From: Candidatus Omnitrophota bacterium
GTDB taxonomy: Bacteria; Omnitrophota; Gorgyraeia; Gygaellales; Profunditerraquicolaceae
Direction: 5' to 3'
Length of the DNA: 64,000 bases
Assembly: GCA_963805065.1 (NCBI GenBank)
Contig: CAWDSS010000010.1
Location: 792,359 to 856,358, forward strand
Shown: piece after piece, positions 3,501-60,877 of the stretch
Numbering within the stretch: the first letter of the stretch is position 1
How the letters are laid out: every line of letters begins with the position of its first letter
Made by a program: the position numbers and the translations under genes
The notes under the pieces: model-generated
What the model saw: the letters and a program-made list of their open reading frames with translations, nothing else
The model's database searches: none
Told to the model about the DNA's origin: nothing

Positions 3501-5348
3501 AACTTACCTCAGGCATTGAACTTTATTCCCACCTGCTCTGTTCTTACGGATAAAGGTATTATTACTACAACGCAGTTTCAATTCGCAGCGCAATCGGGAG
3601 ATTTGATAAATGCAATACCAAAACTGCTTTCCACTAAAATTGAAGAAGTTTTTAATCTAAAACTTCAAAAAAAGCATGAACTGGCGCAAAACGCGCTTAC
3701 CGATACAGATTTTCTAGTCGATCTATTTAATTTTCATAGAGCATATATTTCAAATAGCAATGCCTCTGAAGTGCTAAAAAGACTGGTAAAGGTGTATTTT
3801 GAAGAGGGGCCGGAAGGCGTTATGCGTTATAAAGCATCGCAGGAGCTCTCTAATCAACAAGCACCAGAACAGATAATATCCAAGTTTATGGAACTATCGC
3901 AGTTAGCAGCTACGGTACGCGAAGGAGAAGAATCAGAGCTTAATATATTTGAGCAATTATTTAAAACTACCCTAGATAGTTACGAAAGGCATATGCAAGA
4001 AAACAAGTTTGATATTAAAGGACTCGCCATAGATAATCAAGAGGATATTCATAGGCTGGAAGCAAGTATAAAGGGGTTTCTATCTCAAGCCAAGGATGTT
4101 GCTTTGCGAGATGCCTTAAGCTCAAATGAACCGGATAAACTATTAACCCTTAAGCTTTTCGGTAAAGATGAAAAAATACGTAATCAAGCCATAGGAATAT
4201 TTAAAAGAATTAACCTGATGCGACAAGAGGCAGATTTGGGCCAGGCGATAAAAATTGCTGAACAAATACGCGGTACTGAGAAGCTGCCTAATGAAGAGCA
4301 AAAAGATATGATTGGAAAACTAGCCGAATCAAATCAGGAAAGAATTCCTAAATTAATGCCGGTTATGAGAATGATTCATCAGCAGTTAATAGAAAAGGAT
4401 AAACCGGAGGCTCAAATAATAGCCGAACTGATAGGAACGCTTCAGGCGTTAAACGACTTTCCGAATTATCTTAACTCATTATCAGCTAATATGATTACTG
4501 CGGAAGTAAGTTTTGATCTTAAGGATACATTAAAGATCGGTCGCTTTGGCGCAAGCGGACAGGGCAATTGTCAAAGTAGCACTAATACTGGTAATTATAA
4601 CAAGAGCCTAATGAGTTTTATTGGAGATTCCCATGAGTTAATCATTATTTTGCGTGATAGCTCTAAGGATGTTATTGGATTTGCGCTCTTGCATGGAGTT
4701 TATCTTGATGATATGGAGTTTGCTTATGTAAAAGAAAGTGTATACACAAATGATAATACTCAAACTGCTCTGCAGGAAGAAGCTTCGAAAAAGATTGCCC
4801 GACAGATAGCAAACCTTTTACAAGTTAAAATATTAGAGGCTAACCCTCAGGAAGGAAAAGATTTTACAGTAACCATCCCTGAAAGCTACGTTCCAAGGTA
4901 TTTAGATTCTTTGGGCGGAGCAGTGCAGCCTTTGAAAATACAGAGAGATATAAAGGCAACAATTATTGAGCCAGCATCATCTAATCTTATAAAACAATCC
5001 TCCGGCTCGCCGATGGATTTAAAGGGTGGTATTGACCTTTCTAAAATTGAACTTACGCTGAAAGACGAAAAGTATATGTCTAGCCTTAGTCCTGCGGATG
5101 TAAAAGTATTGCGGGCGGCAAAGGCATTAAAAGATCAGTGGGACAGTCTGTCGCTATTGTATGTTCATGAGATAATGCTGATGATGAAGGACGGGCTGGT
5201 CAAAGACCTGCAAAATAAAAATGTGCTGCTAAATGTAATGGATCAGTTAAAATCAAGGTCATTCTTAGACCCGCAGGCAATGCAATTCTTCAATCTAATT
5301 CTATTAGAAAAATCGCCTTCCGAAATCAAACTCGCCCTATCGAATTAA
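501..5348 (+). CDS. giant hypothetical protein (1615 aa) with a thrice-repeated S-[AS]-G-S-P-[VM] motif
   Basis: Uninterrupted 4.8-kb ORF in an AT-rich background. No catalytic motif recognised. The motif occurs at about aa 195, 436 and 1500. Confidence 0.7.
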   Translation: MFKDGKLVIHIVFADKDAVRDHMAKTYEFFRQEGFNKIASSSDQNHITLEKGITRLVLFNGDKQKYDIRQHLKEGVFGYFGRMHANNEDLFLQTEEVIPAKDKLFFLSSCRSVNVMEKFAEYYPGAEFIGANETAYGDEANKLTKAYIDSFLKRIPTYEDIRENIRANGDFRNYVLPGGPEDKVRNIMLNSKEQSAGSPVGIGSSPLQMTQENIDNIKGWSVRVVEPKWVNMEKGEVDIAIDAAPDDMSSDVKKGKMVLKIRPNDVKNNVELVIHPKQGGEVILQPENPYFKGVFEAVSSHLPVRLLMADLSKEHLSIEKALSDYKFAGTLNAILQKNKDQVTELLNVSIKQLEYVEHRFPEAVPMYKDIFRLLLKEVNESGLPTMKTNKDFYTWLYGIKSINDYLGRYTFEDKQQILRQTVSHIMQADYAMAMKSAGSPMDVNTASSAIGSVIGKLTNLFARKNTIPDSQVDWIKDLKRLKQIPEINTSEEMSMGLDLTETLLKNSSISDLVEQFGVKPFIDILISSAGNVSGVRFIMPKFRLNMLTDKIPGFIGWGTENTNLDEGFKEYQRLRDAELLMQKTRQQIEPLVSALEPIKDLIKDGVIDMRQIQQVMDLSGGSISAASRSLSDLSEVIKTNGLEDLIELVNINQNPNMLRIKWGLGPDEFGWLSEYRDLLLKYGTKPFIFMAGILKKDHVFSSKDKSSENILEFAKELEEDNIIDTYGIEVACAVLLKEKEIYIKGLYPNNPIIEKKDWEFLNSAAHYLRLLKEKNARSLEDWSRMSEGLIIKEDIDAFITYYQLFSEYGLENVAILSKSVRAGYIEGLFKRNRPIIQKVGIESLVELSKKDSNVLTRLADADMETWALLFLQQGKIGSGEKDLRQTVLHLNNLSVFYDMDQFGYKDKIMSALLQVLQHNKRYEKLNLVEDFLVTNLFRSREVQDKISDYLVKEKTDVKRALITRALFWKYAKLSDEKIHPFDSLHINDMYDQVILNTESKNLPQALNFIPTCSVLTDKGIITTTQFQFAAQSGDLINAIPKLLSTKIEEVFNLKLQKKHELAQNALTDTDFLVDLFNFHRAYISNSNASEVLKRLVKVYFEEGPEGVMRYKASQELSNQQAPEQIISKFMELSQLAATVREGEESELNIFEQLFKTTLDSYERHMQENKFDIKGLAIDNQEDIHRLEASIKGFLSQAKDVALRDALSSNEPDKLLTLKLFGKDEKIRNQAIGIFKRINLMRQEADLGQAIKIAEQIRGTEKLPNEEQKDMIGKLAESNQERIPKLMPVMRMIHQQLIEKDKPEAQIIAELIGTLQALNDFPNYLNSLSANMITAEVSFDLKDTLKIGRFGASGQGNCQSSTNTGNYNKSLMSFIGDSHELIIILRDSSKDVIGFALLHGVYLDDMEFAYVKESVYTNDNTQTALQEEASKKIARQIANLLQVKILEANPQEGKDFTVTIPESYVPRYLDSLGGAVQPLKIQRDIKATIIEPASSNLIKQSSGSPMDLKGGIDLSKIELTLKDEKYMSSLSPADVKVLRAAKALKDQWDSLSLLYVHEIMLMMKDGLVKDLQNKNVLLNVMDQLKSRSFLDPQAMQFFNLILLEKSPSEIKLALSN

Positions 5349-7553: not shown

Positions 7554-8375
7554 ATGAATAAAGATTTAGATGAGATAGAATTTACAATTTTCGATACTGA
7601 AACTACCGGCCTTGAGCCGAGCTCAGGAGACAGGGTAGTAGAAATTGCAGCCATCAGGCTAAAAGGCAAACAAAAAATAGCTACTTTCAATAGCTTGGTT
7701 AATCCCCAAAGGCAAATTTCAGAAGCTGCATTTGCCGTGAATAAAATTACTCCTGAGATGCTAAAGGACGCACCTGCAATAGGCACTGTGATGCCCAAAT
7801 TCTTAAAGTTTATCGAAGGAAGTTGTCCTTGTTCTTATAATGCTAATTTTGACGTAGAGTTTTTAAATAATGAATTAAAGCTTATTGGCCAGGATGTCCT
7901 AAAAGGCATTGCATTTGTAGATATTTTAAAAATGGCTAAAAGGCTAATGCCGGGTTTAGAGCGTTACCCGCTCTGGTTTGTAGCTGATAAACTGGGGATA
8001 AAAACTCCCCAACAGCATAGAGCGCTTTCGGATGTTGAATTGACCTTGGGCGTATTCGATAAATTAAGAGAAATGCTCAAAGCAAAAGGCGTGTATGATT
8101 TCGATAAATTCCTGGCACTGTTTAACATCGATCCGCTGTTGTCCCATAATTTACTCAACCAGAGAATTGCCGAGATCCAGGAGGCAATTGACCTGGGGGT
8201 AAAACTGAATATGCAATACCTTTCCCGGTCAAATGCGGAAGTTTCCGAGCGGGAAGTCATTCCCAAGGAGATAAAGAAGGATAGAGACATCAGTTATTTG
8301 GTGGCTTTCTGTTGCATGCGTAACGAAGAGCGCACTTTTAGAATCGATGGCATATTACACCTGGAAATCGTATAA
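7554..8375 (+). CDS. DnaQ/epsilon-like 3'-5' exonuclease with a WYL-like C-terminal domain
   Basis: ExoI motif FDTETTGL and ExoIII motif HRALSDV. The C-terminal sequence RTFRIDGI is WYL-like. Confidence 0.7.
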   Translation: MNKDLDEIEFTIFDTETTGLEPSSGDRVVEIAAIRLKGKQKIATFNSLVNPQRQISEAAFAVNKITPEMLKDAPAIGTVMPKFLKFIEGSCPCSYNANFDVEFLNNELKLIGQDVLKGIAFVDILKMAKRLMPGLERYPLWFVADKLGIKTPQQHRALSDVELTLGVFDKLREMLKAKGVYDFDKFLALFNIDPLLSHNLLNQRIAEIQEAIDLGVKLNMQYLSRSNAEVSEREVIPKEIKKDRDISYLVAFCCMRNEERTFRIDGILHLEIV

Positions 8376-9702
8376 ACTAAACATAGACCCGATTAGAATA
8401 TTCGAAATCTTAAGCCGGAAAAACCACTGCTTTTTTCTGGACAGTAGCCTCCACGGCAGGTATTCATTTTTAGGGATAGAGCCGTTCCATACGTTACAAA
8501 CCAAAAATGCAGAGCCTTTTAATAATCTAAGACAGTTGTTATCCCAATACAAGATTTCAGTTAAAAAAAATAGTATTCCGTTTCTGGGGGGCGCAGTAGG
8601 TTTCTTAAGTTATGATTTAGGCTTTCTTCTGGAAAAAAAGCTTATTCGTAAAACCAGGGATGATTTGGCCATCCCGCATTGTTTTTTCGCATTCTATAAC
8701 ACGGCAATCATCATCGATAATCTCAAAAAATTACTTTATGTATTTGCCGTAGGCTTTCCGGAGAAAAGATACGGCCCCGGGAAAAGCCTTTGCCAAGCAA
8801 ACATTAAAAAAATACAAAACCTGCTTTTGCGCTGTGAGACGCATAAGGCTTATAGCAGTAAAAATAAAGCAGAAACCAATCATTCTAGCCTTGAGTCTAA
8901 CTTTAGTCGAAAAGATTATCTCTTGGCAGTAAAGAAAGCAAAACAATACATAAAAGCAGGGGATATTTATCAGGTTAACCTTGCGCAAAGATTTAGCGCC
9001 AGGACTAAAGTTTGCGCTGACAAAATTTATCAGAGGTTGCGCAGATTAAGCCCCTCTGATTTTAGCGCTTATTTTGATGCCCAGGATTTTCAGATTATCA
9101 GTTCTTCACCGGAAAGATTCTTAAAATTGGAAAATAATACAGTGATTACCACTCCCATGAAAGGCACCCGCTCGCGCGGGGAAACCTCAGCACAAGACGC
9201 ACTGCTTAAGAATGAATTGTTAAACAGCAAAAAAGACAAAGCAGAATTAACCATGATTGTGGATTTGGAGCGCAATGACTTGGGAAGAGTTTGTAAATAC
9301 GGCTCTGTAAAAGTTAATGCATTAAGAAAATTAGAAAAATACAATACGGTGTTTCAGACCACTGCCACGGTTAGCGGGCAACTGCACAAAGACAAAGACA
9401 GGCTGGATTTACTGCGTGCCTGTTTTCCCGGCGGCTCCATAACGGGATGCCCCAAAATCAGGGCTATGGAGATTATCGAGGAGCTTGAGCCAAACAGCCG
9501 CTCAATTTATACCGGCTCTCTTGGTTATTTAAGTTTTTCCGGCGGCATGGATTTTAACATTCTCATCCGCAGCATATTAAAAAAGAAAGATAAGCTTTAT
9601 TTTGGCGTGGGAGGCGGGATTGTGGCTGATTCAGACCCGCAATCCGAATACGAGGAAACGCTTGTGAAGGCAAAGGCAATGATTGAGGCAATAGAAAACT
9701 AA
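8347..9702 (+). CDS. pabB: aminodeoxychorismate/anthranilate synthase component I
   Basis: Chorismate-binding motifs: GDIYQVNLAQRF, PMKGT, FPGGSITGCPK, YTGSLGY. Confidence 0.8.
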   Translation: MAYYTWKSYKLNIDPIRIFEILSRKNHCFFLDSSLHGRYSFLGIEPFHTLQTKNAEPFNNLRQLLSQYKISVKKNSIPFLGGAVGFLSYDLGFLLEKKLIRKTRDDLAIPHCFFAFYNTAIIIDNLKKLLYVFAVGFPEKRYGPGKSLCQANIKKIQNLLLRCETHKAYSSKNKAETNHSSLESNFSRKDYLLAVKKAKQYIKAGDIYQVNLAQRFSARTKVCADKIYQRLRRLSPSDFSAYFDAQDFQIISSSPERFLKLENNTVITTPMKGTRSRGETSAQDALLKNELLNSKKDKAELTMIVDLERNDLGRVCKYGSVKVNALRKLEKYNTVFQTTATVSGQLHKDKDRLDLLRACFPGGSITGCPKIRAMEIIEELEPNSRSIYTGSLGYLSFSGGMDFNILIRSILKKKDKLYFGVGGGIVADSDPQSEYEETLVKAKAMIEAIEN

Positions 9703-10520
9703 TGAAGGAAATAGTATTTTCAAACGGAAAATTCCTGGCTGCAGAGGATGCGAAAATTCCCGTGAGTAGCCTGGGTTTATTAATGGGCTTAGGATTGTTT
9801 GAAACCATGCGCTCATACAATAAAAAAATAGTTTATTTGGATAAGCATTTAACTAGGATTAAGAATTCCTGCAAACTGATTAATTTGAAATTTCCTTACT
9901 CTATAAGCAAGTTAAAGAATAGCATTAAAAAGACAGTAGAACTTAATGCTATTCAAGATGCCTATGTAAGATTAACATTATGCAAATCCGTATCCGGGAC
10001 AGATTGTATAATTTTGTTAAAAAAATACACCCCCTTTCAGTTGGCAAAATATAAAAAAGGCTTTTCAGCAATAGTTTCACGATTTCTACAGGATGAAAAC
10101 TCTTTGCTTTCGCAAATCAAAACCACAAACCGTATGATTTACGAAATTGCGCTGCAGGAAGCAAAACTCGCAGGATGTGACGAGGCACTATTCCTTAATA
10201 ACAAAGGCTTTATCGCAGAGGCCTCGCGAAGCAATGTTTTCCTGGTAAAGAACCAGGAAATTTTTACGCCTTCTCTACAATGCGGTTGTCTTGATGGCAT
10301 CACCAGAAGAGTTATCCTTGATTTGGCAAAAAAACACCATTTGAAGGCCAGTGAAGGAAATTTTACCTTGCAGGAATTATATTATGCTGACGAGGCGTTT
10401 TTAACCAATTCTTTAATCGGGATTATGCCTTTGACTTGCATAGAAAAACATGCTATTGGCAAGGCCGGAAGAGGCGAAACAACAGAGTTTTTGATAAAAA
10501 AATACGATTCCTTACTTTAA
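9702..10520 (+). CDS. pabC: aminodeoxychorismate lyase / class IV aminotransferase
   Basis: Fold-type IV PLP enzyme pattern (..RSNVF.., GITR, ..FLTNS..), immediately downstream of pabB. Confidence 0.7.
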   Translation: MKEIVFSNGKFLAAEDAKIPVSSLGLLMGLGLFETMRSYNKKIVYLDKHLTRIKNSCKLINLKFPYSISKLKNSIKKTVELNAIQDAYVRLTLCKSVSGTDCIILLKKYTPFQLAKYKKGFSAIVSRFLQDENSLLSQIKTTNRMIYEIALQEAKLAGCDEALFLNNKGFIAEASRSNVFLVKNQEIFTPSLQCGCLDGITRRVILDLAKKHHLKASEGNFTLQELYYADEAFLTNSLIGIMPLTCIEKHAIGKAGRGETTEFLIKKYDSLL

Positions 10521-10522
10521 AA

Positions 10523-11668
10523 ATGCATCTAGAAACCATAACAATACCTTTTAAACTAAAAAAGCCTATTCTTGCATTGGGCAGCCAAACCAAAAATACA
10601 ATTTGTTTTGTAAAAGGTGATACTGCTTATATTAGCCCGGTGCACGCTGATTTAAGCAATCCACAAGACTTTTTACAATTCGAGAAAGACGTAAAATATT
10701 TTCTTAAACAAAGGCCAAAAATCATTGCTTATGATTTACACCCGGAATATCAATCCACAAAATATGGTCTTGAGCTTTCAGCTTTCAGCTTTCAGCTTTC
10801 AGCTGTGCAGCATCATCATGCGCATATAGCTGCCTGTATGGCAGAGAATGGCTTGAGTAACCAGAAAGTCATTGGCGTAGCTTTTGACGGCACTGGTTTA
10901 GGCGCGGATGGCTCGCTTTGGGGAGCAGAGTTTCTGATTTGCGACTATAAAAATTTTGTGCGTAAAGCCCATGTTCAAGAAATAGTTCTTCTGGGAGGAG
11001 AAAAAGCAATATTAGAACCCTTTAGGCTCACAGCAGCCTGGCTTTTCCTGGCCTATGAAGGCAGGTTTTTAAACCTGGATATTGATTTCGTGAAGAAACT
11101 GGATAAAAAGAAATGGCTGGTTTTAAAGCAAATGCTTGTATCGGGATTTAACTCTCCGTTGGCAAGCAGCATGGGCAGGCTTTTTGATGCAGCTGCTAGC
11201 CTTGTGTTAAGCAAGTATAAAGCTAGCTTTGAAGCAGAGCTGGCGATTGAATTAGAAAAATTAGCTGTTAGTTTTCAGTCGTCAGTTTTCAGTCGTCAAC
11301 TTTCAGCTATCAGCTATCAGTTTAAAATCATTAAAAGCAAAAATGATTATATCTTAGATCCTGCTTTAATTTTTAAAGGAATAATTCAAGATTTAAAAGC
11401 TGGCACGCCAAAAGAGAAAATTGCTTACAAGTTTCACAAAACTATTGCTGAAATGATAAATAAAACCTGTAGAATTTTAAGAAAGGGTAGCGGCATAAAC
11501 AACGTGGTTTTATCAGGCGGGGTTTTTCAAAATAAGCTTTTACTTAAGTTAAGTTCGGATTTATTATATAAACATAAGTTTAGATTATATATGCACAAAA
11601 ATTTATCCTGCAATGACTCAGGAGTTTCTCTCGGTCAAGCTTTAATCGCAAATTTTTCAAAGGGTTAA
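10523..11668 (+). CDS. hypF: HypF-like protein consisting only of the C-terminal Kae1-like domain
   Basis: LGSQTKNT, DLHPEY, QHHHAHIAA and AFDGTGLG..LWGAEFL match the HypF C-terminal half. The acylphosphatase, Zn-finger and YrdC parts are absent. I use the ATG at 10523, just after the pabC stop. Confidence 0.7.
   Translation: MHLETITIPFKLKKPILALGSQTKNTICFVKGDTAYISPVHADLSNPQDFLQFEKDVKYFLKQRPKIIAYDLHPEYQSTKYGLELSAFSFQLSAVQHHHAHIAACMAENGLSNQKVIGVAFDGTGLGADGSLWGAEFLICDYKNFVRKAHVQEIVLLGGEKAILEPFRLTAAWLFLAYEGRFLNLDIDFVKKLDKKKWLVLKQMLVSGFNSPLASSMGRLFDAAASLVLSKYKASFEAELAIELEKLAVSFQSSVFSRQLSAISYQFKIIKSKNDYILDPALIFKGIIQDLKAGTPKEKIAYKFHKTIAEMINKTCRILRKGSGINNVVLSGGVFQNKLLLKLSSDLLYKHKFRLYMHKNLSCNDSGVSLGQALIANFSKG
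10773..10807. repeat. heptanucleotide tandem repeat (AGCTTTC)x4 plus a degenerate unit, inside hypF
   Basis: Read directly: agctttc agctttc agctttc agctttc agctgtg. Confidence 0.9.
11263..11325. repeat. degenerate heptanucleotide array (AGNNNTC)x9 inside hypF
   Basis: Read directly: agctgtt agttttc agtcgtc agttttc agtcgtc aactttc agctatc agctatc agtttaa. Confidence 0.85.
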
Positions 11669-11672
11669 ATAT

Positions 11673-11882
11673 ATGTGTTTGGCTATCCCCATGAGAATTA
11701 AGCAAATCGAAGGACAGTTTGCCCAGGTTGAATCAGGCAGGCTCGTAAGGACAATTAATATCCAAATGCTGCCTCAGGCAAAAAAAGGAGACTATGTGCT
11801 TGTGCATGCGGGGTTTGCCCTGGAGAAAATTGACCCTAAAAGAGCAAAAGAAACCTTAAGGATGATAAATGAAATACGTTGA
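11673..11882 (+). CDS. hypC: hydrogenase maturation chaperone HypC
   Basis: N-terminal MCLAIP motif, about 70 aa, located between hypF and hypD. Confidence 0.85.
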   Translation: MCLAIPMRIKQIEGQFAQVESGRLVRTINIQMLPQAKKGDYVLVHAGFALEKIDPKRAKETLRMINEIR

Positions 11883-12957
11883 TGAATTCAGGAATATAGC
11901 CCTGGTTAACAAGCTAAAGGAGAAAATAAAAAATATCGCTCCTTTAGGAGCAATAAATTTTATGGAAGTGTGCGGCACGCATACTCAAAGTTTTCGCAGG
12001 TTCGGTTTGAATAATATGCTCCCCAACAATATCAGGCTGATTGCCGGCCCGGGCTGCCCTGTGTGCGTTAGCTCGCAAGGATACATTGATAATGCGATTA
12101 CCCTGGCACACCGTAAAGAGGTAATTTTGGTTACATTCGGAGATATGCTGCGTATTCCCGGCACTAGCTCCACGCTGGAAAAAGAAAAGTCTCTCTACTC
12201 TAACGTGCGCGTAGTTTATAGCGCCTGGGAAAGCCTGAACATTGCCAAACAAAATCCCGATAAGCAAGTAGTGTTTTTAGCAGTGGGTTTTGAAACCACG
12301 GCTCCCACAATTGCCTTAAGCATAATCGCCGCTAAACAGGAGAAATTAAATAATCTATCTTTCTATTCTTCTCTGAAGTTGATTCCTCCTGCCATGGATT
12401 ATCTGGCAAGGGACAAAAGGTTAAGGCTGGACGGGTTTTTGTGTCCCGGACACGTTTCCTCCATAATCGGAACCAGGCCTTACCGATTCCTGCCTCAAAA
12501 ATACGGCGTGGGTTGCTGCATAACCGGATTTGAGCCGCTGGATATTTTAGAAGGCATATACATATTATTACGCCAAATTAAGGAATGTAAGCCAAGAGTG
12601 GAAAACCAGTACAGCCGCGCAGTGGCAAGAGAAGGAAATTTAAAAGCGCAAAAGACAATCTGGCAAGTTTTTCACACCTCTGATGCTTATTGGCGGGGCT
12701 TGGGAAAAATCCCCCAAAGCGGGCTTAAAATAAGAGAAAAATTCGCAAAACTCGATGTAGAAAAAATATTCCCCATAGCAAAAAATGAATTTGTTAAGTT
12801 TCAACAAAAGAAATGCCGCTGTGCCGATATTTTAAAAGGGCTTATCTCTCCTTTGGATTGTCCTTTATTCTTAAAGGTGTGTTCTCCGGAAAATCCCATC
12901 GGTCCGTGCATGGTTTCCCTGGAAGGAGCGTGTAATGCGTATTATAAATACCGGTGA
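11869..12957 (+). CDS. hypD: hydrogenase maturation protein HypD
   Basis: Motifs EVCGTHT, GPGCPVCV and FETTAP, plus the C-terminal Cys cluster. Confidence 0.9.
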   Translation: MKYVDEFRNIALVNKLKEKIKNIAPLGAINFMEVCGTHTQSFRRFGLNNMLPNNIRLIAGPGCPVCVSSQGYIDNAITLAHRKEVILVTFGDMLRIPGTSSTLEKEKSLYSNVRVVYSAWESLNIAKQNPDKQVVFLAVGFETTAPTIALSIIAAKQEKLNNLSFYSSLKLIPPAMDYLARDKRLRLDGFLCPGHVSSIIGTRPYRFLPQKYGVGCCITGFEPLDILEGIYILLRQIKECKPRVENQYSRAVAREGNLKAQKTIWQVFHTSDAYWRGLGKIPQSGLKIREKFAKLDVEKIFPIAKNEFVKFQQKKCRCADILKGLISPLDCPLFLKVCSPENPIGPCMVSLEGACNAYYKYR

Positions 12958-15361
12958 AAAGTTAAAAGTAAAAAGCAAAAAGGTAAAAGTGAAAAGCCAA
13001 AAGTTAAAAGTGTTGATTTTTGCGTTTTGCATTTTGGGTTTAACTGCCGGTTGTATTCAGAAAGACGAACTAGAGCTGGCGCAGGAATGTGTAGGCAAGT
13101 CCGATGTCTACTACCAGCATGCCATTGAAAGGTACAAGAAATTAATTAATAAAGGCAAGGACTTAGACAGGCTGTATTTTGAACTGGGCAGGTTGTATTA
13201 CTCGCACGGTGAATTTGACAAGTCTAAACATGCCTTGGAAAAAAGCGCGGCTTTACAGGGACATAAGCTTCTGGCTATATCTGATTATAAACTGGGTAAT
13301 TTTACCGATGCCCTGGAAATTTTTGGCAAGGATAATATTTCCGATGATGAATACCTGTATTATTACGGTTTAACCTGCGAAAAATTGAACCTGTTTGATA
13401 AAGCCCTGGATATTTATAAAAAGATAAAAGGCAATAAATTTATTCCGCTCGCACAGGCACGCATAAATATCATCCGCAATGATGGAGCGTTGCAAACAAT
13501 AGAACAAAAAGACCCCAACATTTATAAAATTATTCAATCCGCGCCATCCCCAGAAGCCTATCCTCAGGCAGGGGCGCTTATTCTGTCCTGCGATGAAAGA
13601 ATCGAAGTCACTGACAAAAATAGCGAAGTTTCAGACATGCACTACGTGATTAAGATTTTAAATGAACGGGGAAAGGAAGATTTTTCAGAAAGCCACATTG
13701 AATACGATTCTACCTATGAAAAGGTAGAATTGGAGTATGCGCGCACCATAAAACCGGACGGCACGATTACAGATGTGGGCAGCCGCCATATCCGCGATGT
13801 CTCCAAATATTTAAATTTTCCCCTCTACAGCAATGTGCGGGTTTACATAATTTCCTTCCCGGAAATTACTGAAGGTGCAGTCATAGAATATAAGGTAAAG
13901 ATTTACAGGAACGAGCTTATCAACAAAAAGGATTTCGTGATAAATTATCCTGTACAATCAAGCGAGCCGGTAATCTTCGCGGATTTTACGGTTACATTGC
14001 CCAAAGGCAGAACTCTGAACCTAAGGACATTAAATGAAAAATACAACAATTTCAACGCCAATCTTAAGCCAGCAATAAACGAACAAGGCACGCGCTTAGT
14101 TTACAGTTGGCACTTTAATAATATCCCTCAGATAATCCCTGAATCCAACATGCCTCCTAACGTAGAGATAAACCCCGCGATACTTATGTCCACTTTTAAT
14201 TCATGGCAAGATATTTATAATTGGTGGTGGGCATTAGCAAAAGATAAAATAAAAGCAGATAAGACTATAGGAAACAAAGTCGCTACCTTAACGGGGAAAT
14301 TAAGTTCTGATGAGGCCAAAATCAGGGCGATATATAATTTCTGCGCAAAAGAAATCCGCTATGTAGCGGTTGAATACGGGCAGGCAGGCTATGAGCCGCA
14401 TAAAGCAGAAGATATATTCCAGAATAAATACGGAGACTGTAAAGACCAGGCAATTCTTTTAGTTACGATGCTTAAAAATTGCGGGTTTACTGCCTGGCCG
14501 GTGTTGATTTCTACAAACGATTATTATAATATGAACCCGGATTTTCCGGCAGTGCTGTTTGACCACTGTATTGCTGCCGTGCAGTTAAAAGACAAAATAA
14601 TATTCCTTGATCCTACGGCGCAAACCTGCTCTTTTGACGACCTGCCAGGAGGGGATCAGGACAGGCAGGTATTGGTATTTAAAGAGAATACCTTTGCGAT
14701 ACAGTTAACACCCCTGTATCCTGCAGGGCATAACCTGGTAAAACAGGCGGCAAGCATCAAAATTAACAATGATGAAACTATAACCGCTAAAAAAGACATC
14801 TTTACCTATGGAATGTATGATCAGGCACAGAGGTATTGGCTCCTGTTTACTCCTCCTCAGCTAATCGAAGAAAAATTGAAAGAGAGAATCCAGGAAGTCT
14901 CTATCGGAGCCAAACTTAGTAAATATGAAATAAAAAACTTAGATAACCTTAATGAGCCCGTAGTATTAAGTTATACATTTAGCGGGCCGGAGTATCTTAC
15001 TATTGCAGGGCCGTTAAGGATTATGCCGCAGCTAGCAAGCCTGGATTCGACAATGGTAGCCAGAGACAAGCGTAAATACCCCATTGATCTCACTATCTTA
15101 GACAAGAAAGAATCGGTGTTGGAGATTGAATTCCCCAAGAATTTCACAATTAAATATATGCCCCAGAGCGTTTCCGAGGACAGCCCCTGGATGTCATTTA
15201 AAGTTGAGTATACCCCTAAAGGCGATAAGCTGGTATTCAGGCAGGTAGCCGAATTAAAAAAGAAAGTCATAGAGGAGCAGGATTACCCTGCTTTTAAAGC
15301 GTTTTTTGATAAATTAGCCAGGCAGATAAAGCAAAGAGTTGTCTTAGAAAAGATAAAGTAA
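12935..15361 (+). CDS. lipoprotein with TPR repeats, a DUF3857-like region and a transglutaminase-like cysteine protease core
   Basis: Lipobox LTAGC. TPR-like helices follow. YGDCKDQAILLVTMLK resembles the transglutaminase-like core Cys. Confidence 0.65.
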   Translation: MRIINTGEKLKVKSKKVKVKSQKLKVLIFAFCILGLTAGCIQKDELELAQECVGKSDVYYQHAIERYKKLINKGKDLDRLYFELGRLYYSHGEFDKSKHALEKSAALQGHKLLAISDYKLGNFTDALEIFGKDNISDDEYLYYYGLTCEKLNLFDKALDIYKKIKGNKFIPLAQARINIIRNDGALQTIEQKDPNIYKIIQSAPSPEAYPQAGALILSCDERIEVTDKNSEVSDMHYVIKILNERGKEDFSESHIEYDSTYEKVELEYARTIKPDGTITDVGSRHIRDVSKYLNFPLYSNVRVYIISFPEITEGAVIEYKVKIYRNELINKKDFVINYPVQSSEPVIFADFTVTLPKGRTLNLRTLNEKYNNFNANLKPAINEQGTRLVYSWHFNNIPQIIPESNMPPNVEINPAILMSTFNSWQDIYNWWWALAKDKIKADKTIGNKVATLTGKLSSDEAKIRAIYNFCAKEIRYVAVEYGQAGYEPHKAEDIFQNKYGDCKDQAILLVTMLKNCGFTAWPVLISTNDYYNMNPDFPAVLFDHCIAAVQLKDKIIFLDPTAQTCSFDDLPGGDQDRQVLVFKENTFAIQLTPLYPAGHNLVKQAASIKINNDETITAKKDIFTYGMYDQAQRYWLLFTPPQLIEEKLKERIQEVSIGAKLSKYEIKNLDNLNEPVVLSYTFSGPEYLTIAGPLRIMPQLASLDSTMVARDKRKYPIDLTILDKKESVLEIEFPKNFTIKYMPQSVSEDSPWMSFKVEYTPKGDKLVFRQVAELKKKVIEEQDYPAFKAFFDKLARQIKQRVVLEKIK
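12954..13042. repeat. inverted pair of heptamer arrays: (GNNAAAA)x8 followed by (GNNTTTT)x4
   Basis: Read directly. It spans the hypD stop and the first ~35 codons of the next ORF. Confidence 0.85.
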
Positions 15362-17308: not shown

Positions 17309-17973
17309 AGCCAGTTTTGAATTCTGTTTATAAAAAACTCTACGCATATTTTGGGCCTCAGCACTGGTGGCCAGGCGAAAGCCGCTTTGAGGTTATGGTA
17401 GGAGCAATACTTACGCAAAACACTAACTGGTCTAATGTAGAAAAAGCAATTGCCAATATCAAAAAACAAAACTTATTGCAATTCCAAAGGCTTCAAAGGC
17501 TGTCGCACAAAAGATTAGCCAGCTTAATCAGGCCTGCCGGTTATTATAATCTCAAGGCAAGGCGTTTAAAGGAATTCTTAAAATTCCTGCACAATCATTG
17601 CCGGGGTAATCTTCGTAAAATGTCCTGCGGGCCCATGGATGAACTGCGAGAGAAATTACTCTCTGTGAAAGGCATTGGCCCTGAGACAGCAGATTCTATC
17701 TTACTTTATGCTTTGAACAAGCCTGTGTTTGTGGTAGACGCATACACAAAAAGAATACTCTTGCGGCACAACATAATCAGAGAAGACTCCGATTATGCCG
17801 CAGTGCAAAATTTGTTTATGGAAAATCTAAAAAATGAGGTAAAATTATTCAACGAATACCATGCGTTATTAGTCAGGTTGGGTAAAGAATTCTGCCTCAA
17901 AAATAAGCCTAAATGTAAAGGATGCCCGATAAACTCAAAACGCAAAAGTCAAAATGCAAAACTTACAACGTAA
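17305..17973 (+). CDS. endonuclease III-like HhH-GPD DNA glycosylase family protein
   Basis: HhH motif LLSVKGIGPETADSILLY. Catalytic D in the VVDAYT context. C-terminal Cys residues. Confidence 0.7.
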   Translation: MKPVLNSVYKKLYAYFGPQHWWPGESRFEVMVGAILTQNTNWSNVEKAIANIKKQNLLQFQRLQRLSHKRLASLIRPAGYYNLKARRLKEFLKFLHNHCRGNLRKMSCGPMDELREKLLSVKGIGPETADSILLYALNKPVFVVDAYTKRILLRHNIIREDSDYAAVQNLFMENLKNEVKLFNEYHALLVRLGKEFCLKNKPKCKGCPINSKRKSQNAKLTT

Positions 17974-18683
17974 AACGCAAAACAAAAGTTTTGTCATTTG
18001 GTATTTGTGCTTTGAGCTTATTTTGGATTTTGTGCTTTGATATTTGTCATTTCGCTTATGCTGCGCCCTGTTACGGAACTAAGCTGCCTGAAAAAAACCA
18101 AATTTTTACGGGATTGCAAAGTTATTCTGTTTTTAACCGGTATCTGGAGGATGATGATGGAAAATTAAGGAGCCAGCAGGAATTTTTGCTTCTCTCCTAC
18201 GGGTTCCTAGATTGGTTATCTGTTGATTTAAAAGGAGGGGCAGGCTACATAAAACAGCATCCCTTCGGAAGCGATGAGCTTGATTATCCGACGTATCTAG
18301 GAGGTGGATACGGATTCAGAATTAAATTTTTTGATAAACAAAACACCAAGATGGTTTTTGGTTTTCAGCACATAAGCGTGCATCCCTATACTATTAGCGT
18401 AGAAGGCGTAAAGAACAAGGCAGTTTTAGATGATTGGCAGTTTTCCTTACTGGCATCGTATGATTTCAAGAAAATTACACCTTATCTGGGAACCAGGTGG
18501 TCCTGGCTGGATTATATCCACTGGACAAATGGTAATAGTAAATTAGAAAAGTCGGATTTAGGTAAGAGTGTCGGCCTGGTAGTAGGTTGCGACCTTCCCG
18601 TGAACGAGAGGTTCTGGTTTAATTTAGAAGGACAATTCTTTGATAGCGAAGCCCTCGCCTTCAGCGCGAATTATAGTTTTTAA
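17922..18683 (+). CDS. putative outer-membrane beta-barrel protein
   Basis: K-rich N-region, hydrophobic core and AYA cleavage-like site. Alternating aromatic/Gly strands and a terminal aromatic residue (..NYSF). Confidence 0.45.
   Translation: MPDKLKTQKSKCKTYNVKRKTKVLSFGICALSLFWILCFDICHFAYAAPCYGTKLPEKNQIFTGLQSYSVFNRYLEDDDGKLRSQQEFLLLSYGFLDWLSVDLKGGAGYIKQHPFGSDELDYPTYLGGGYGFRIKFFDKQNTKMVFGFQHISVHPYTISVEGVKNKAVLDDWQFSLLASYDFKKITPYLGTRWSWLDYIHWTNGNSKLEKSDLGKSVGLVVGCDLPVNERFWFNLEGQFFDSEALAFSANYSF
17934..18060. repeat. inverted pair of heptamer arrays: (NNCAAAA)x7 followed by (NTTTGNN)x~9
   Basis: Read directly. It spans the 3' end of the endoIII-like gene and the N-terminus of the next ORF. 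Confidence 0.85.
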
Positions 18684-33496: not shown

Positions 33497-34852
33497 ATGA
33501 CTTATCCAGAAGCAGTCAAGTATCTGGAATCTTTTATTAACTACGAAAAAATCCCCGCCTATCCTTACAAGGAGTCTTGTAAGCTGGAACGCATTAAAGA
33601 CTTTTTAGGCTTAATCGGTAACCCGCAAAACTCTCTTAAGACGATTCATATTGCCGGGACAAAAGGAAAGGGCTCAACCTGCGTTTTTATAGCCCATATA
33701 TTACGGCAGGCAGGTTACGCTACAGGCCTTTATACATCTCCGCATTTATCTGACTTCAGGGAGCGGATACGAATATTGATTCCCAGAACCCAGAACCCAG
33801 AACCCAGAACCGATTTCGAGGGTATGATCTCTAAGGATGAATTAACCTTGTTGGTAAAAAAGCTTAAACCCTCAGTAGAAACATTCAATAAAAATTCAGA
33901 ATACGGTCCCCTTTCTTTTTTTGAAGTATATACTGCATTAGCTTTCCTGTATTTTAAGAACAAAAATGTCGATTTTGCGGTATTGGAAACGGGTTTAGGA
34001 GGCAGGCTCGATGCCACTAATGCCTCTGATTCTTTTGTCTGTGCTTTAACTTCTCTAAGTTATGAACATACACAGAAATTGGGTAACGCCCTAAGAGAAA
34101 TAGCTGCTGAGAAAGCAGGAATCATAAAAAGGCAAAAGGCAAAAGGCAAAAGGCAAAACTCAATTGTGATAAGCGCGCCGCAGGAAAAAGAGGCGATGGA
34201 TGTAATCAGAAAGCGGTGCAAAGAGACAAATGCCAAATTATACGAAGTCAATAAGGATATATTTTATGAGAAAACAATAAAAGGATTTAATCTGCTGGGT
34301 ATATATGGGGAATACCCGAATTTAGAAATCAGGCTTTTAGGCGATCATCAGTTGATAAACGCAAGCGTAGCAGTCGCTGCAATAGAGGCATTGCGCGATT
34401 TTGGTGTTATCATAGGCATTGATTCTATAAGAAGCGGCCTTTATAATACTGTCTGGCCTGGACGCTTGGAAGTCGTGGGCAGAAGTCCTTTAATAATATT
34501 AGACGGAGCGCAAAATATTGCTTCTGCTAAGGCAATAAAACAGGCAATTAAGGGAAATTTCAAATATAAAAGGCTGATACTGGTTTTAGGAATTTCCCAA
34601 GACAAGGATTTATCAGGCGTGTGTGGCGAGTTAAAGGATATAGCAGATGCGGTAATTTTGACTAAGGCCAACAACCCCAGGGCAACTGGCCCGCAAATGT
34701 TACGCAGCTATTTTAATGAAGAATGCGTCTTTATAACTAATAATGTTAAACAGGCAAAGCAAAAGGCACTGTCAATGGCTAACAAGGACGATTTAATTTT
34801 AGTTACAGGTTCTTTATTCGTTGTCGGAGAATTCAGGGATGTTAAAATTTAA
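33497..34852 (+). CDS. folC: folylpolyglutamate synthase / dihydrofolate synthase
   Basis: HIAGTKGKGST, YTSPHL, ETGLGGRLDATN and DGAQN. Confidence 0.88.
   Translation: MTYPEAVKYLESFINYEKIPAYPYKESCKLERIKDFLGLIGNPQNSLKTIHIAGTKGKGSTCVFIAHILRQAGYATGLYTSPHLSDFRERIRILIPRTQNPEPRTDFEGMISKDELTLLVKKLKPSVETFNKNSEYGPLSFFEVYTALAFLYFKNKNVDFAVLETGLGGRLDATNASDSFVCALTSLSYEHTQKLGNALREIAAEKAGIIKRQKAKGKRQNSIVISAPQEKEAMDVIRKRCKETNAKLYEVNKDIFYEKTIKGFNLLGIYGEYPNLEIRLLGDHQLINASVAVAAIEALRDFGVIIGIDSIRSGLYNTVWPGRLEVVGRSPLIILDGAQNIASAKAIKQAIKGNFKYKRLILVLGISQDKDLSGVCGELKDIADAVILTKANNPRATGPQMLRSYFNEECVFITNNVKQAKQKALSMANKDDLILVTGSLFVVGEFRDVKI
33782..33811. repeat. heptanucleotide tandem repeat (CCCAGAA)x4.3 inside folC
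   Basis: Read directly. It encodes ..PRTQNPEPRT.., inserted after the conserved FRERI motif. Confidence 0.9.
34131..34158. repeat. heptanucleotide tandem repeat (GGCAAAA)x4 inside folC
   Basis: Read directly. It encodes ..KAKGKRQN.., inserted after the conserved EKAGIIK motif. Confidence 0.9.
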
Positions 34853-36221
34853 TACAAACGATACAATTGTCGCTATTGCCACTTCCATGGGGGAATCTGG
34901 AATAGGAATTGTACGTATCAGCGGCAAATGCGCTTTAAAAATCGCCGACAGAATATTTGTTTCCAAGAATAACCAAAAGGCCTCGACTTTTAAGACCTAC
35001 ACCACCCATTATGGATGGATAATGGATAAAGGAGAAATTATCGACGAGGTAATATTAACAATAATGCGTAAGCCGCGCTCTTTTACCAGGGAAGATGTTG
35101 TGGAAATCAATTGCCACGGGGGGCTAGTGGCTTTACGCAGGGTCCTTGAGCTGGTTTTGGAAAATAACTGCCGGTTGGCAGAGCCTGGAGAATTTACAAA
35201 AAGGGCTTTTTTAAACGGCAGAATTGACCTTACGCAGGCAGAGGCAGTCTTAGATATTATCCGCGCCAAAACGGATTGCGCATTAAACATAGGGTTAGAG
35301 CAATTAAGGGGAGGCTTATCCGGCAAGATAAATAAAATCAGAAAAAGACTTTTGGATATTGTTTCCCAGATGGAAGCAAACATTGATTTTCCGGAGGAAG
35401 AAATAGGCTCCGCTAATTTAAAACAAATGCGAGAGAATTTGCTTGATATAAATAATGAGCTGCTAAATATACTAGCGACTTCTAAGCGTGGAAGGATAAT
35501 GCGAGAAGGAATACACGTGGTTATATGCGGAAAACCTAACGTGGGCAAGTCTTCGCTTTTAAATGCGTTATTGAAACAGGAGCGCTCCATTGTCACTCCC
35601 GTAGCCGGCACAACCCGTGACACCATAGAGGAGATAATCGACATAAAAGGCATACCCGTGAGGATCGTCGATACAGCCGGAATCCTGGAACCAAAGGATT
35701 TAATAGAGAAAAAAGCAGTCCAGCGTTCAAAAAGGCATATTGGCTTGGCTGATCTTGTAATTCTTGTGTTTGACGGCAGCAGGCCATTGACCGATAATGA
35801 TGAGTTGCTTATGCGCAAATTAAATAAAGGCAACGTGATTGCTGCGATAAATAAATCAGACCTAAGACAACTCATCAAGCGCGAAAAGATTTTGAAAAAA
35901 TTTAAATACGTGGTGGATATTTCGGCAAAAAAACTTAAAAACATAAATCTCCTGGAAGACAAAATTGTTAACCTGGTTTATGGCGGGAAAGTAGCAATTA
36001 ATGAGCCGGTAACCCTGAATAATTTAAGGCACATATCCTCCATGCAGGAAGCACAAATTCTTATTGCGCAAGCAGTTAATTCATCGGATAATAATTTGTC
36101 CCTTGAATTCGTTTCCCAAAGCCTCAAGGATGCGCTTTTGTATTTGGATGACATATTGGGTTTAAGGTTCAGTGAAGACTTGCTGGATAAGATATTCAGC
36201 GATTTTTGTATCGGCAAATAA
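34839..36221 (+). CDS. mnmE: tRNA uridine-5-carboxymethylaminomethyl modification GTPase MnmE
   Basis: N-terminal DTIVAIAT, GKPNVGKSSLLN, DTAG, C-terminal CIGK. Start taken at the internal ATG 34839. Confidence 0.9.
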   Translation: MLKFNTNDTIVAIATSMGESGIGIVRISGKCALKIADRIFVSKNNQKASTFKTYTTHYGWIMDKGEIIDEVILTIMRKPRSFTREDVVEINCHGGLVALRRVLELVLENNCRLAEPGEFTKRAFLNGRIDLTQAEAVLDIIRAKTDCALNIGLEQLRGGLSGKINKIRKRLLDIVSQMEANIDFPEEEIGSANLKQMRENLLDINNELLNILATSKRGRIMREGIHVVICGKPNVGKSSLLNALLKQERSIVTPVAGTTRDTIEEIIDIKGIPVRIVDTAGILEPKDLIEKKAVQRSKRHIGLADLVILVFDGSRPLTDNDELLMRKLNKGNVIAAINKSDLRQLIKREKILKKFKYVVDISAKKLKNINLLEDKIVNLVYGGKVAINEPVTLNNLRHISSMQEAQILIAQAVNSSDNNLSLEFVSQSLKDALLYLDDILGLRFSEDLLDKIFSDFCIGK

Positions 36222-60755: not shown

Positions 60756-60877
60756 GTGTAATGTGTAAAGTGTAATGTGTAATGCAGGTGTAATGTGTAT
60801 ATGTGTAACGGATAAAGCACTTGCATCACACAATCAAACATTACACAACGTTACACATTACACGTTAAAGTTACACA
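60756..60877. repeat. heptamer arrays (GTGTAAT)x~7 and inverted (ATTACAC)x~4 forming a long imperfect hairpin
   Basis: Read directly. It fills the intergenic gap between KS-beta and the radical SAM gene. Confidence 0.85.

Follow-up and report, generated by a model that had tools for sequence, protein, structure and literature searches.

Tandem arrays of 7-nt units are known from several bacterial genomes. The short tandemly repeated repetitive sequences (STRRs), heptamer arrays that Mazel et al. reportedly described from cyanobacteria in 1990, are built from a few fixed units (CCCCAGT, TTGGTCA, CAACAGT), lie mostly between genes and are found in heterocystous species. In NeuO of Escherichia coli K1 a coding heptanucleotide repeat gives rise to phase variation: the product is made only at copy numbers that are multiples of three, and the repeat is translated into heptads. 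Repetitive DNA within genes is also known as the Rickettsia palindromic elements (RPEs), which are dispersed, ~100–150 bp long and of one consensus, and as the inserts of Plasmodium, which are driven by slippage and form low-complexity segments in phase with the codons. Here we analyse the heptamer arrays in a 64,000-nt stretch of DNA from a Candidatus Omnitrophota bacterium (contig CAWDSS010000010.1, hereafter the window), two of which are located in hypF-C, a gene for the C-terminal, Kae1-like domain of HypF. These arrays are probably native, self-perpetuating heptanucleotide microsatellites that evolve by slippage, with selection acting on frame and length.

As far as their work is represented in two later papers (PMC4679880, PMC4692102), Mrazek, Guo and Shah (2007) found heptamers to be the commonest class of long simple sequence repeats (SSRs) in many prokaryotes. 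The proposed cause was polymerase slippage with a contact length of ~7 nt (via PMC4679880), and repeats within genes are given, in the part of the study represented, as mostly of units divisible by three. Heptamer SSRs are without an accepted explanation and have received almost no detailed study (PMC4692102). TAACTGA direct repeats occur in marine Beggiatoaceae, cyanobacteria and Bacteroidetes in 2–6 copies, almost all of them intergenic and just 5' of start codons, and translational regulation has been proposed as their role (PMC4679880). GGGNATC repeats of Xanthomonas and Nostoc prefer about four units, form G-quadruplexes and show an under-representation within coding sequences (PMC4692102); they too are a single unit family.

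The gene hypF-C is found at 10523..11668 on the + strand. It encodes a product of 381 aa, and its ATG at 10523 is the start used by orthologues. Its open reading frame (ORF) matches HypF_C (PF17788, 4.8e-27) and HypF_C_2 (PF22521, 1e-72), and the product aligns to residues 393–746 of HypF 3VTH with E = 8e-74. The metal motif HHHxH is present as QHHHAH at residues 96–101, and the AlphaFold2 (AF2) model has a predicted local distance difference test score (pLDDT) of 91.9. Acylphosphatase, zinc-finger and YrdC-like domains are absent from the ORF and likewise from the top 120 homologues. Thus the name hypF given by the first-pass annotation is right for the Kae1-like domain but not for a full hypF. 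Its statement that both arrays lie inside this domain without breaking the frame is borne out by a single uninterrupted ORF with both Pfam matches. The closest relatives of the gene in genome collections are all Omnitrophota metagenome-assembled genomes (MAGs) at 57–67% identity; the window protein is the only member of its cluster, and the nearest protein is 72% identical.

Site 1 is the heptamer tract at 10766..10807 (+). It covers residues 82–95 and encodes GLELSAFSFQLSAV. The (AGCTTTC) array noted at 10773 is real and in frame, with a core of 4.6 copies that Tandem Repeats Finder (TRF) places at 10773–10804 with 100% matches; including the degenerate end units (GGTCTTG ... AGCTGTG) the tract comprises 42 nt, or 14 codons. 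In the AF2 model it forms the end of helix 77–88, a two-residue turn and strand 91–95, which runs into the H97-H98-H99-x-H101 motif. The spacing between K80 and Q96 is identical to that of the window in 90 of 120 orthologues and one residue shorter in 15 of 120. The length of site 1 is equal or almost equal in orthologues without periodicity (loci L005, L009 and L012) and in the full-length HypF of a Nitrospinaceae MAG and of a Dehalococcoidales MAG. The nearest relative, L102 (72% identity), carries AGCTTT[A/T] x4.1 at equal position and length, a one-base variant of the window's AGCTTTC. In a few lineages an octamer unit, GTCACCAC, occupies the site, which is there one residue longer; this would fit a replacement of three 7-nt units (21 nt) by three 8-nt units (24 nt).

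Site 2 is a composite heptamer tract at 11258..11325 (+), made of the 14-mer AGTTTTCAGTCGTC x2.6 and TCAGCTA x2.6. TRF places the former at 11270–11306 (91%) and the latter at 11303–11320 (100%). The nine phased degenerate units at 11263–11325 (AGCTGTT AGTTTTC AGTCGTC AGTTTTC AGTCGTC AACTTTC AGCTATC AGCTATC AGTTTAA), noted earlier as an in-frame array, are confirmed by both the sequence and TRF and encode LAVSFQSSVFSRQLSAISYQF. TCAGCTA (LSAISYQ), which is also present in L002 and L029, is one base away from TCAGTTA (LSVISYQ), the reverse complement of TAACTGA; in contrast to the Omnitrophota arrays, TAACTGA is one unit genome-wide. From the LEK anchor to the conserved Tyr the modal length is 13 residues, with 13 in L102 and 20 in the window. 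Relative to L102 and the modal form, site 2 of the window carries three additional units (21 nt, 7 aa). It belongs to a surface region that is the lowest-confidence part of the AF2 model, and it exceeds 3VTH by 10 residues. The view that arrays were inserted twice into the gene therefore fails at site 1, where the orthologue alignment gives an unchanged length and the tract is a helix-turn-strand element, and holds in part at site 2, where 7 of the 20 residues are extra. One unit family at both sites had also been taken as a sign of an active repeat-seeding or expansion process. A general coupling of the two sites is not found in other genomes, where units at the two sites are unrelated, for example CGACTAT and AAGTTAT in L025 or GCAGCTT and CTCAATA in L049.

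In orthologues at 55–72% identity, precisely these two positions are occupied by period-7 arrays of differing units. We scanned 120 HypF-C orthologues (61–72% identical) in 12-residue windows for a match of at least 9/12 to a translated perfect heptamer array. Matches occur at two places only, at window residues 82–98 (57 sequences) and 246–268 (37 sequences); the same scan gives 2 and 1 sequences with period 8 and none with period 5. In the DNA of site 1, a period of 7 gives the best fit in 73 of 94 distinct genes. Perfect arrays of at least three copies are present in 20 of the 94 and of at least four copies in 15, and 13 different units are found among the 20, including CACCTAT, CGACTAT, CGAGCTA, CAGCTAT, ACGCTAT, CACGCTA, ACGCAAT, GCAGCTT, CTCTCAA, CAGGCTA and AGCTTTC. 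The same positional conservation is observed in other genes; the analysis in depth covered four genes in all. FolC has heptamer-coded peptides at exactly two sites (32/120 and 31/120 sequences; period 8 in 5 and 17). In the window, folC (33497–34852) contains two perfect arrays identified by TRF, (CCCAGAA)x4.3 at site A (33782..33811, +) and (AAAAGGC)x4.6 at site B (34127..34158, +). Site A has the length of the nearest relative and site B is longer than it by exactly 21 nt (7 aa). HypD has its hot spot just before the KCRC motif, where 34 distinct loci yield no fewer than 14 period-7 and 3 period-8 arrays, every one with a different unit. The hypF-C tracts thus appear to be part of a phylum-wide class of hot spots, at which ~30–40 nt are kept as 4–5 copies of a 7-nt, occasionally 8-nt, unit. 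Such arrays had seemed strange to the first-pass annotation for this type of genome and for conserved enzymes; in Omnitrophota they are the rule, at orthologous positions of several conserved genes.

Within clusters of proteins at least 90% identical, site 1 is also seen swapped as a whole, LSL-PTTYYLLPT in P0251 against LNLKPNTYHLIPI in the other members of the P0045 cluster, and LSTIDYRLSTI in P0275 against LYAICYTMPAGRQALYAI in P0049. Identical peptide types at this site reappear in lineages that are not sisters, which could be due to convergence on few permitted units or to short-patch recombination.

The period of 7 nt is strongly preferred. In the window, four exact runs of period 7 with 2.5 copies or more are observed against 0.03 expected (maximum 1 in 100 shuffles), and the same scan finds none there at periods 8–15. 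TRF gives 33 rows for the window, ten of them with period 7; besides those in hypF-C, the period-7 arrays are at 12957, 13018, 17931, 33782, 34127, 35015 and 60756. The non-identical loci retrieved around hypF-C homologues sum to 752 kb, and TRF detects in them 97 period-7 and 28 period-14 arrays, at most 10 at any other period, and no period-7 array in shuffles of this set. Because these loci were picked via hypF-C, the window statistic is the independent one. Exact runs of at least three copies number 49 at period 7 and 2 at period 8, with none at periods 5, 6 and 9–12. Whether period-7 arrays outnumber those of other periods had been left open; on both scales, window and related loci, they are far commoner. 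The frame-neutral periods 6 and 9 are not enriched, so the bias is probably mutational and not a matter of coding tolerance. Such a spectrum speaks for a process whose intrinsic step is 7 nt. As Mrazek et al. proposed according to PMC4679880, this step may reflect the polymerase contact length.

Like the heptanucleotide SSRs of Mrazek et al., the Omnitrophota arrays consist of tandem 7-nt units with many unit sequences per genome. As in other heptanucleotide microsatellites, the units are arranged head to tail, exceed chance and differ between relatives in whole units. The two differ in that the Omnitrophota arrays are undepleted in genes, sit in conserved enzymes at orthologous positions and turn over in concert; as represented in the citing papers, the earlier survey does not cover this phylum. 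Outside hypF-C, 55 of 56 arrays lie in long ORFs at a coding density of ~91%, and genes thus do not exclude arrays. The copy number of perfect arrays plateaus at 3–5 with a peak at 4–5, and none reaches 6. This preference resembles that of GGGNATC repeats. As the Omnitrophota arrays are without G-tracts, a G-quadruplex does not explain why about four units are preferred here, and G-quadruplexes are no general cause of this preference.

With STRRs the arrays share the short tandem 7-nt organization and several families per genome. In contrast to STRRs, their units are site-specific and coding, and the organism is not cyanobacterial. None of the STRR, TAACTGA and GGGAATC units is tandem in the window, and the three STRR units do not appear there even twice in a row. 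Membership in the STRR class was rejected on this ground and on the location of the arrays in ORFs. The likeness to STRRs suggested earlier is therefore a fair analogy as regards tandem heptamers, whereas the fixed units and intergenic location that would make them STRRs are missing.

The arrays are constrained at the nucleotide level. In genes with (CACCTAT)5 arrays, whose proteins are 65–71% identical, 10–11 of the 11 codons of the array are common, while outside it codons for identical residues agree only about half the time in the same genes. The constraint is thus on the nucleotides and not on the peptide. In a homogenised array every base of the unit falls in turn on each of the three codon positions, so a change that spreads across the array is always non-synonymous somewhere. 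This would explain the conservation of codons, provided that homogenisation is fast.

Fast change of this concerted kind is directly visible between close relatives, which differ by changes that involve several units together. Between L028 and L029 (95% aa identity) every unit of site 1 differs, being CGAGCTA in the former and TCAGCTA in the latter, between L084 and L094 (95%) a C>T change is found in three adjacent units, and between L044 and L096 a single base is altered in all four units. In L067 (89%) the place of the perfect CTCTCAA array of L064 is taken by a decayed relic of another unit with equal length. Loop lengths vary in quanta of 7 aa. The length classes, in residues, are 17/24/31/38 for hypF site 1, 14/21/28 for hypF site 2, 11/18/25/32 for HypD and 17/24/31 for FolC site B, which in addition has 25/33/41 with octamers. 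Only net changes of three units (21 nt) stay in frame, and this answers the puzzle of how 7-nt units are reconciled with codons.

Changes of one or two units are also observed as frameshift alleles. In L087, a 188-kb contig, hypF-C has one unit fewer than in L004 and hypD has two units fewer (25 nt vs 39 nt); in both genes the frame changes inside the array and the rest is intact. This is the only frame change of hypF-C on a long contig among ~98 copies, and those of L087 are the only ones among 77 hypD, 59 pabC, 53 DUF3857 and 48 pabB copies. The second case is found in folC. The 76.6-kb contig L105, from a species other than that of the window, aligns to L106/L107 over 5660 nt with 0 mismatches and one 7-nt gap, which is the loss of one AAAAGGC unit at FolC site B, the same unit and site as at 34127–34158 of the window. 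As a result folC of L105 is split into products of 219 aa and 221 aa, while it is intact in 10 other contigs. Frameshifts off the arrays on short contigs (hypF-C of L089 and L096, folC of P0307) were taken as probable errors, and P0327 and P0273, which diverge at array sites, were not counted because their contigs are only ~1.5 kb long. The idea of an active repeat process is supported by the gain and loss of whole units, by units that change in concert and by the frameshift alleles. To be noted, the break in the folC of L105 (2501–3858) falls where the Mur-ligase middle domain meets the C-terminal domain, and the downstream half possesses an ATG of its own, 13 codons on. Judging from this arrangement, the two halves might still function as separate polypeptides.

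Such alleles would be expected if the arrays were adaptive contingency switches, by which hypF-hypC-hypD or folC are reversibly turned off and on in part of the population by phase variation. The unit is indivisible by 3 and the frame-neutral periods are absent; the off-type alleles differ by whole units only, in both hyp genes of L087 and by a single unit in 5.66 kb in folC of L105; and the arrays are at unchanged positions across the phylum. NeuO likewise has a 7-nt unit inside an ORF. However, NeuO is a single gene with many copies at its N-terminus and a surface phenotype, whereas the Omnitrophota arrays have 4–5 copies, are internal, and occur at many loci in housekeeping genes. The affected genes encode cytoplasmic housekeeping or maturation enzymes (FolC, MnmE, HypD), not proteins of the surface or of host interaction; that folC is essential in these organisms is assumed from other bacteria. 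The arrays are also short (4–5 units with the cut-off below 6), and two of them in one gene would be redundant. Moreover, the off state is seen in 1 of ~98 hypF-C copies and in 1 of 11 contigs of one folC, as for any hypermutable site under purifying selection. We therefore consider switching unlikely.

The hot spots are also the site of a second repeat, a GC-rich palindrome of 20–21 nt with the form CCTGCC(TGCC)..GGCAGG(CAGG), which encodes LPAGRQA or PACRQAG. It has 46 matches in 777 kb compared with 2–8 in shuffles, and is almost always found within heptamer arrays, namely at hypF-C sites 1 and 2, the HypD site, FolC site A and the lipoprotein N-terminus described below. Examples are at L086 ~740, L100 ~2430, L044 ~3479, L023 ~1651, L004 ~8461, L025 ~4772, L099 ~1765 and L033 ~6492. 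The palindrome adds 7 aa in frame, and all +7, +14 and +21-aa variants at hypF site 1 are due to it. Its presence differs between proteins that are at least 90% identical (P0194 vs P0325). No canonical copy is present in the window.

The arrays could be insertions of selfish or by-product DNA that were seeded independently and repeatedly and are tolerated in permissive loops, maybe in connection with the 21-nt palindrome. Their conserved positions would then reflect a filter by selection and tell nothing of ancestry. RPEs and Plasmodium inserts offer a parallel, as in-frame repetitive DNA that is tolerated at particular places in conserved proteins, but the Omnitrophota arrays are 7-nt tandem repeats read in all three frames. 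Several observations speak for seeding. From species to species the HypD and FolC sites have unrelated units, and the units of close relatives may be unrelated as well (L004 vs L049; L064 vs L067 at 89% identity). The hot spots also take up palindromes, whose presence varies among proteins that are at least 90% identical, and at window site 2 and at FolC site B 21 nt have truly been added. On the other hand, the arrays at site 1 and FolC site A add no length compared with non-repetitive orthologues, and site 1 is a structured helix-turn-strand element in the AF2 model. Site 1 units have a phase-locked CTA anchor and site 2 units a GCTA anchor in most species, and the site 1 unit of L102 is only one base from that of the window. 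A dispersed element has one consensus and defined ends. The palindrome would answer this description; the arrays have neither ends nor a consensus between sites, each site having its own unit, and the window lacks the canonical palindrome. A 7-bp target duplication would be expected to add 28 nt, but 21 nt is observed. Footprints of an element with 7-bp target duplications were rejected for this reason, as the palindrome adds 21 nt and the changes of the arrays fit steps of three units. There is in our view only a small chance that seeding accounts for the arrays.

Still less probable is that some role of the DNA or RNA itself, irrespective of the unit sequence, maintains the 7-nt periodicity, such as the phased binding of one OB-fold or cold-shock-type protein per heptamer, or a structural signal. 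Period, copy number (4–5) and position are conserved while the sequence varies. In addition, direct repeats of heptamers can be bound by CspB, one protein to each heptamer, according to work cited in PMC4679880, and GGGNATC repeats prefer about four units (PMC4692102). However, the coding arrays fold no better than shuffles (z = -0.24, +1.10 and -0.78). Among them site 2 is an exception with z = -3.9, an excess that is due to its AGCT palindromes. An Rfam search of the whole window gave no family match, many orthologues have no array at the same site, and the frameshift alleles make the arrays a liability. RNA structure was thus rejected as the common denominator; beside site 2 the only exception is an intergenic inverted pair at 60756..60877 (+), where (GTGTAAT)n is followed by its inverted complement (ATTACAC)n to form a long hairpin (-46.5 kcal/mol, z = -5.75). 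Its neighbours are genes for a beta-ketoacyl synthase on one side and a B12-binding radical SAM protein on the other.

Selection on the protein for a repeat of 7 residues, suggested by the heptad-like look of the peptides (LSPITYHLSPI, LSAFSFQLSAV), is excluded by the codon test, as the DNA period is 7 nt and not 21 nt and synonymous positions are conserved at 10–11/11 against ~0.5 elsewhere, and an assembly or sequencing artefact is hardly conceivable for arrays of ~35 nt, shorter than reads and k-mers, that recur at identical sites in over 100 independent assemblies, made by different projects with different assemblers.

A native microsatellite evolving by slippage is the reading that we prefer. 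Here whole-unit misalignment during replication or repair, by slippage or unequal exchange, would lead to the gain or loss of units, with slippage as the molecular step, and the 7-nt step would come from the replication or repair machinery and not from selection. Turnover would erase mutations of single units or spread them, and all copies would change together. A partly decayed array would retain enough of its 7-nt periodicity to expand again, and the site would persist while its unit drifts or is replaced. Selection would let pass only stop-free units and, among changes of unit number, only a net gain or loss of three (21 nt, 7 aa). In a segment of fixed length such as site 1, before the catalytic His motif, the array would overwrite the sequence without a change of length, presumably through an expansion/deletion ratchet. 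In a tolerant surface region such as site 2 the tract would step by 7 residues, and the window would have gained three units. Changes by one or two units would lead to frameshift null or split alleles, such as those observed.

Several points weigh against this reading. Steps of a single unit are frameshifts, and the homogenisation of ~5 units at constant length in a needed gene may proceed by +3/-3 cycles, compensated steps or the expansion-deletion ratchet. Neither the cut-off below 6 perfect copies nor the specificity for 7 nt is accounted for. Since HypD and FolC units are unrelated between species, one ancestral array and re-seeding at a permissive site cannot be separated there. Among 12 near-identical hypF-C pairs (at least 97% aa identity) no difference in unit number was found, and L102 and L103 are identical over 13.8 kb; the turnover is therefore not extremely fast. 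Furthermore, every +7-aa variant at site 1 is a nested 21-nt palindrome and not growth of the array, and the cases on record of arrays that expanded in frame are confined to site 2, FolC site B and, probably, HypD.

The remaining arrays of the window were identified by TRF. (AAAAGTT)x7.9 and (TTTTGCG)x3.4 lie at 12957..13041 (+) in the signal peptide region of a DUF3857/transglutaminase lipoprotein gene (12935–15361). The signal peptide is encoded almost wholly by these two arrays, ahead of the lipobox LTAGC; the A-rich array gives the K-rich n-region and the T-rich array the hydrophobic h-region. T-rich heptamer arrays also encode the h-regions of signal peptides at L010 17459, L014 17554 and L008 12103. 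In relatives, arrays of different units are found at the same lipoprotein N-terminus in many loci. (AAACGCA)x7.6 at 17931..17983 (+) forms the C-terminal tail of an HhH-GPD glycosylase gene and overlaps the start of the next ORF; the equivalent place in L009 has (ACAGTTC)x4.7. A minor array, (ATGGATA)x2.7, is found in mnmE at 35015..35033 (+).

Downstream of hypF-C are hypC (11673..11882, +), recognized by its MCLAIP... N-terminus and by the PF01455 match of the syntenic L102 gene, and hypD (11869..12957, +), whose hot spot just before KCRC (~aa 301–316) is degenerate in the window. In the window (10523–12957) as in more than 100 related loci, the Omnitrophota HypF is the Kae1-like C-terminal domain alone (~375 aa), adjoining hypC and hypD, and the acylphosphatase, zinc-finger and YrdC-like parts are neither in the ORF nor in its immediate neighbourhood. 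This gene arrangement suggests a split or partner-dependent carbamoyltransferase in these Omnitrophota. Upstream, pabB and pabC (8347–10520) are located between an RNase T/WYL gene and hypF-C, and they are not at that position in L102, the nearest syntenic relative. Further upstream (501–5348), an ORF of 1615 aa has no Pfam match, and the same is true for the syntenic ORF of 2224 aa in L102.

We found no literature that links Omnitrophota to heptamer repeats; a preprint of 2026 on 176 complete Omnitrophota genomes applied TRF to giant genes only. Nor did we find a description of the combination observed here, in which heptamers are a regular part of conserved enzyme genes, occupy orthologous codons phylum-wide, turn over in concert and change length in 7-residue quanta. 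More speculatively, and with a low probability in our estimation, the arrays may be the product of a repeat-writing or repeat-maintaining process specific to the Omnitrophota lineage, which would have a 7-nt (sometimes 8-nt) step and heritable hot spots and would possibly be used for frameshift or split-gene switches. If this were true, the process could be a property of the replicase or of repair, or could be tied to the 21-nt palindromes, and whole pathways might be switchable, as hyp in L087 and folC in L105.

For the annotation of Omnitrophota MAGs, hypervariable peptides with a 7-aa period and split or frameshifted housekeeping genes are to be expected. Such genes could pass for pseudogenes, assembly errors or strain markers, and the arrays distort alignments and trees at their positions. 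For the biology of heptamer repeats, the phylum provides a natural experiment, in which the same enzyme codons are occupied by 7-nt arrays in hundreds of independent lineages. Why the unit has 7 nt, why the arrays stop at ~5 copies and how a frame-incompatible repeat homogenises in a needed gene are now testable questions.

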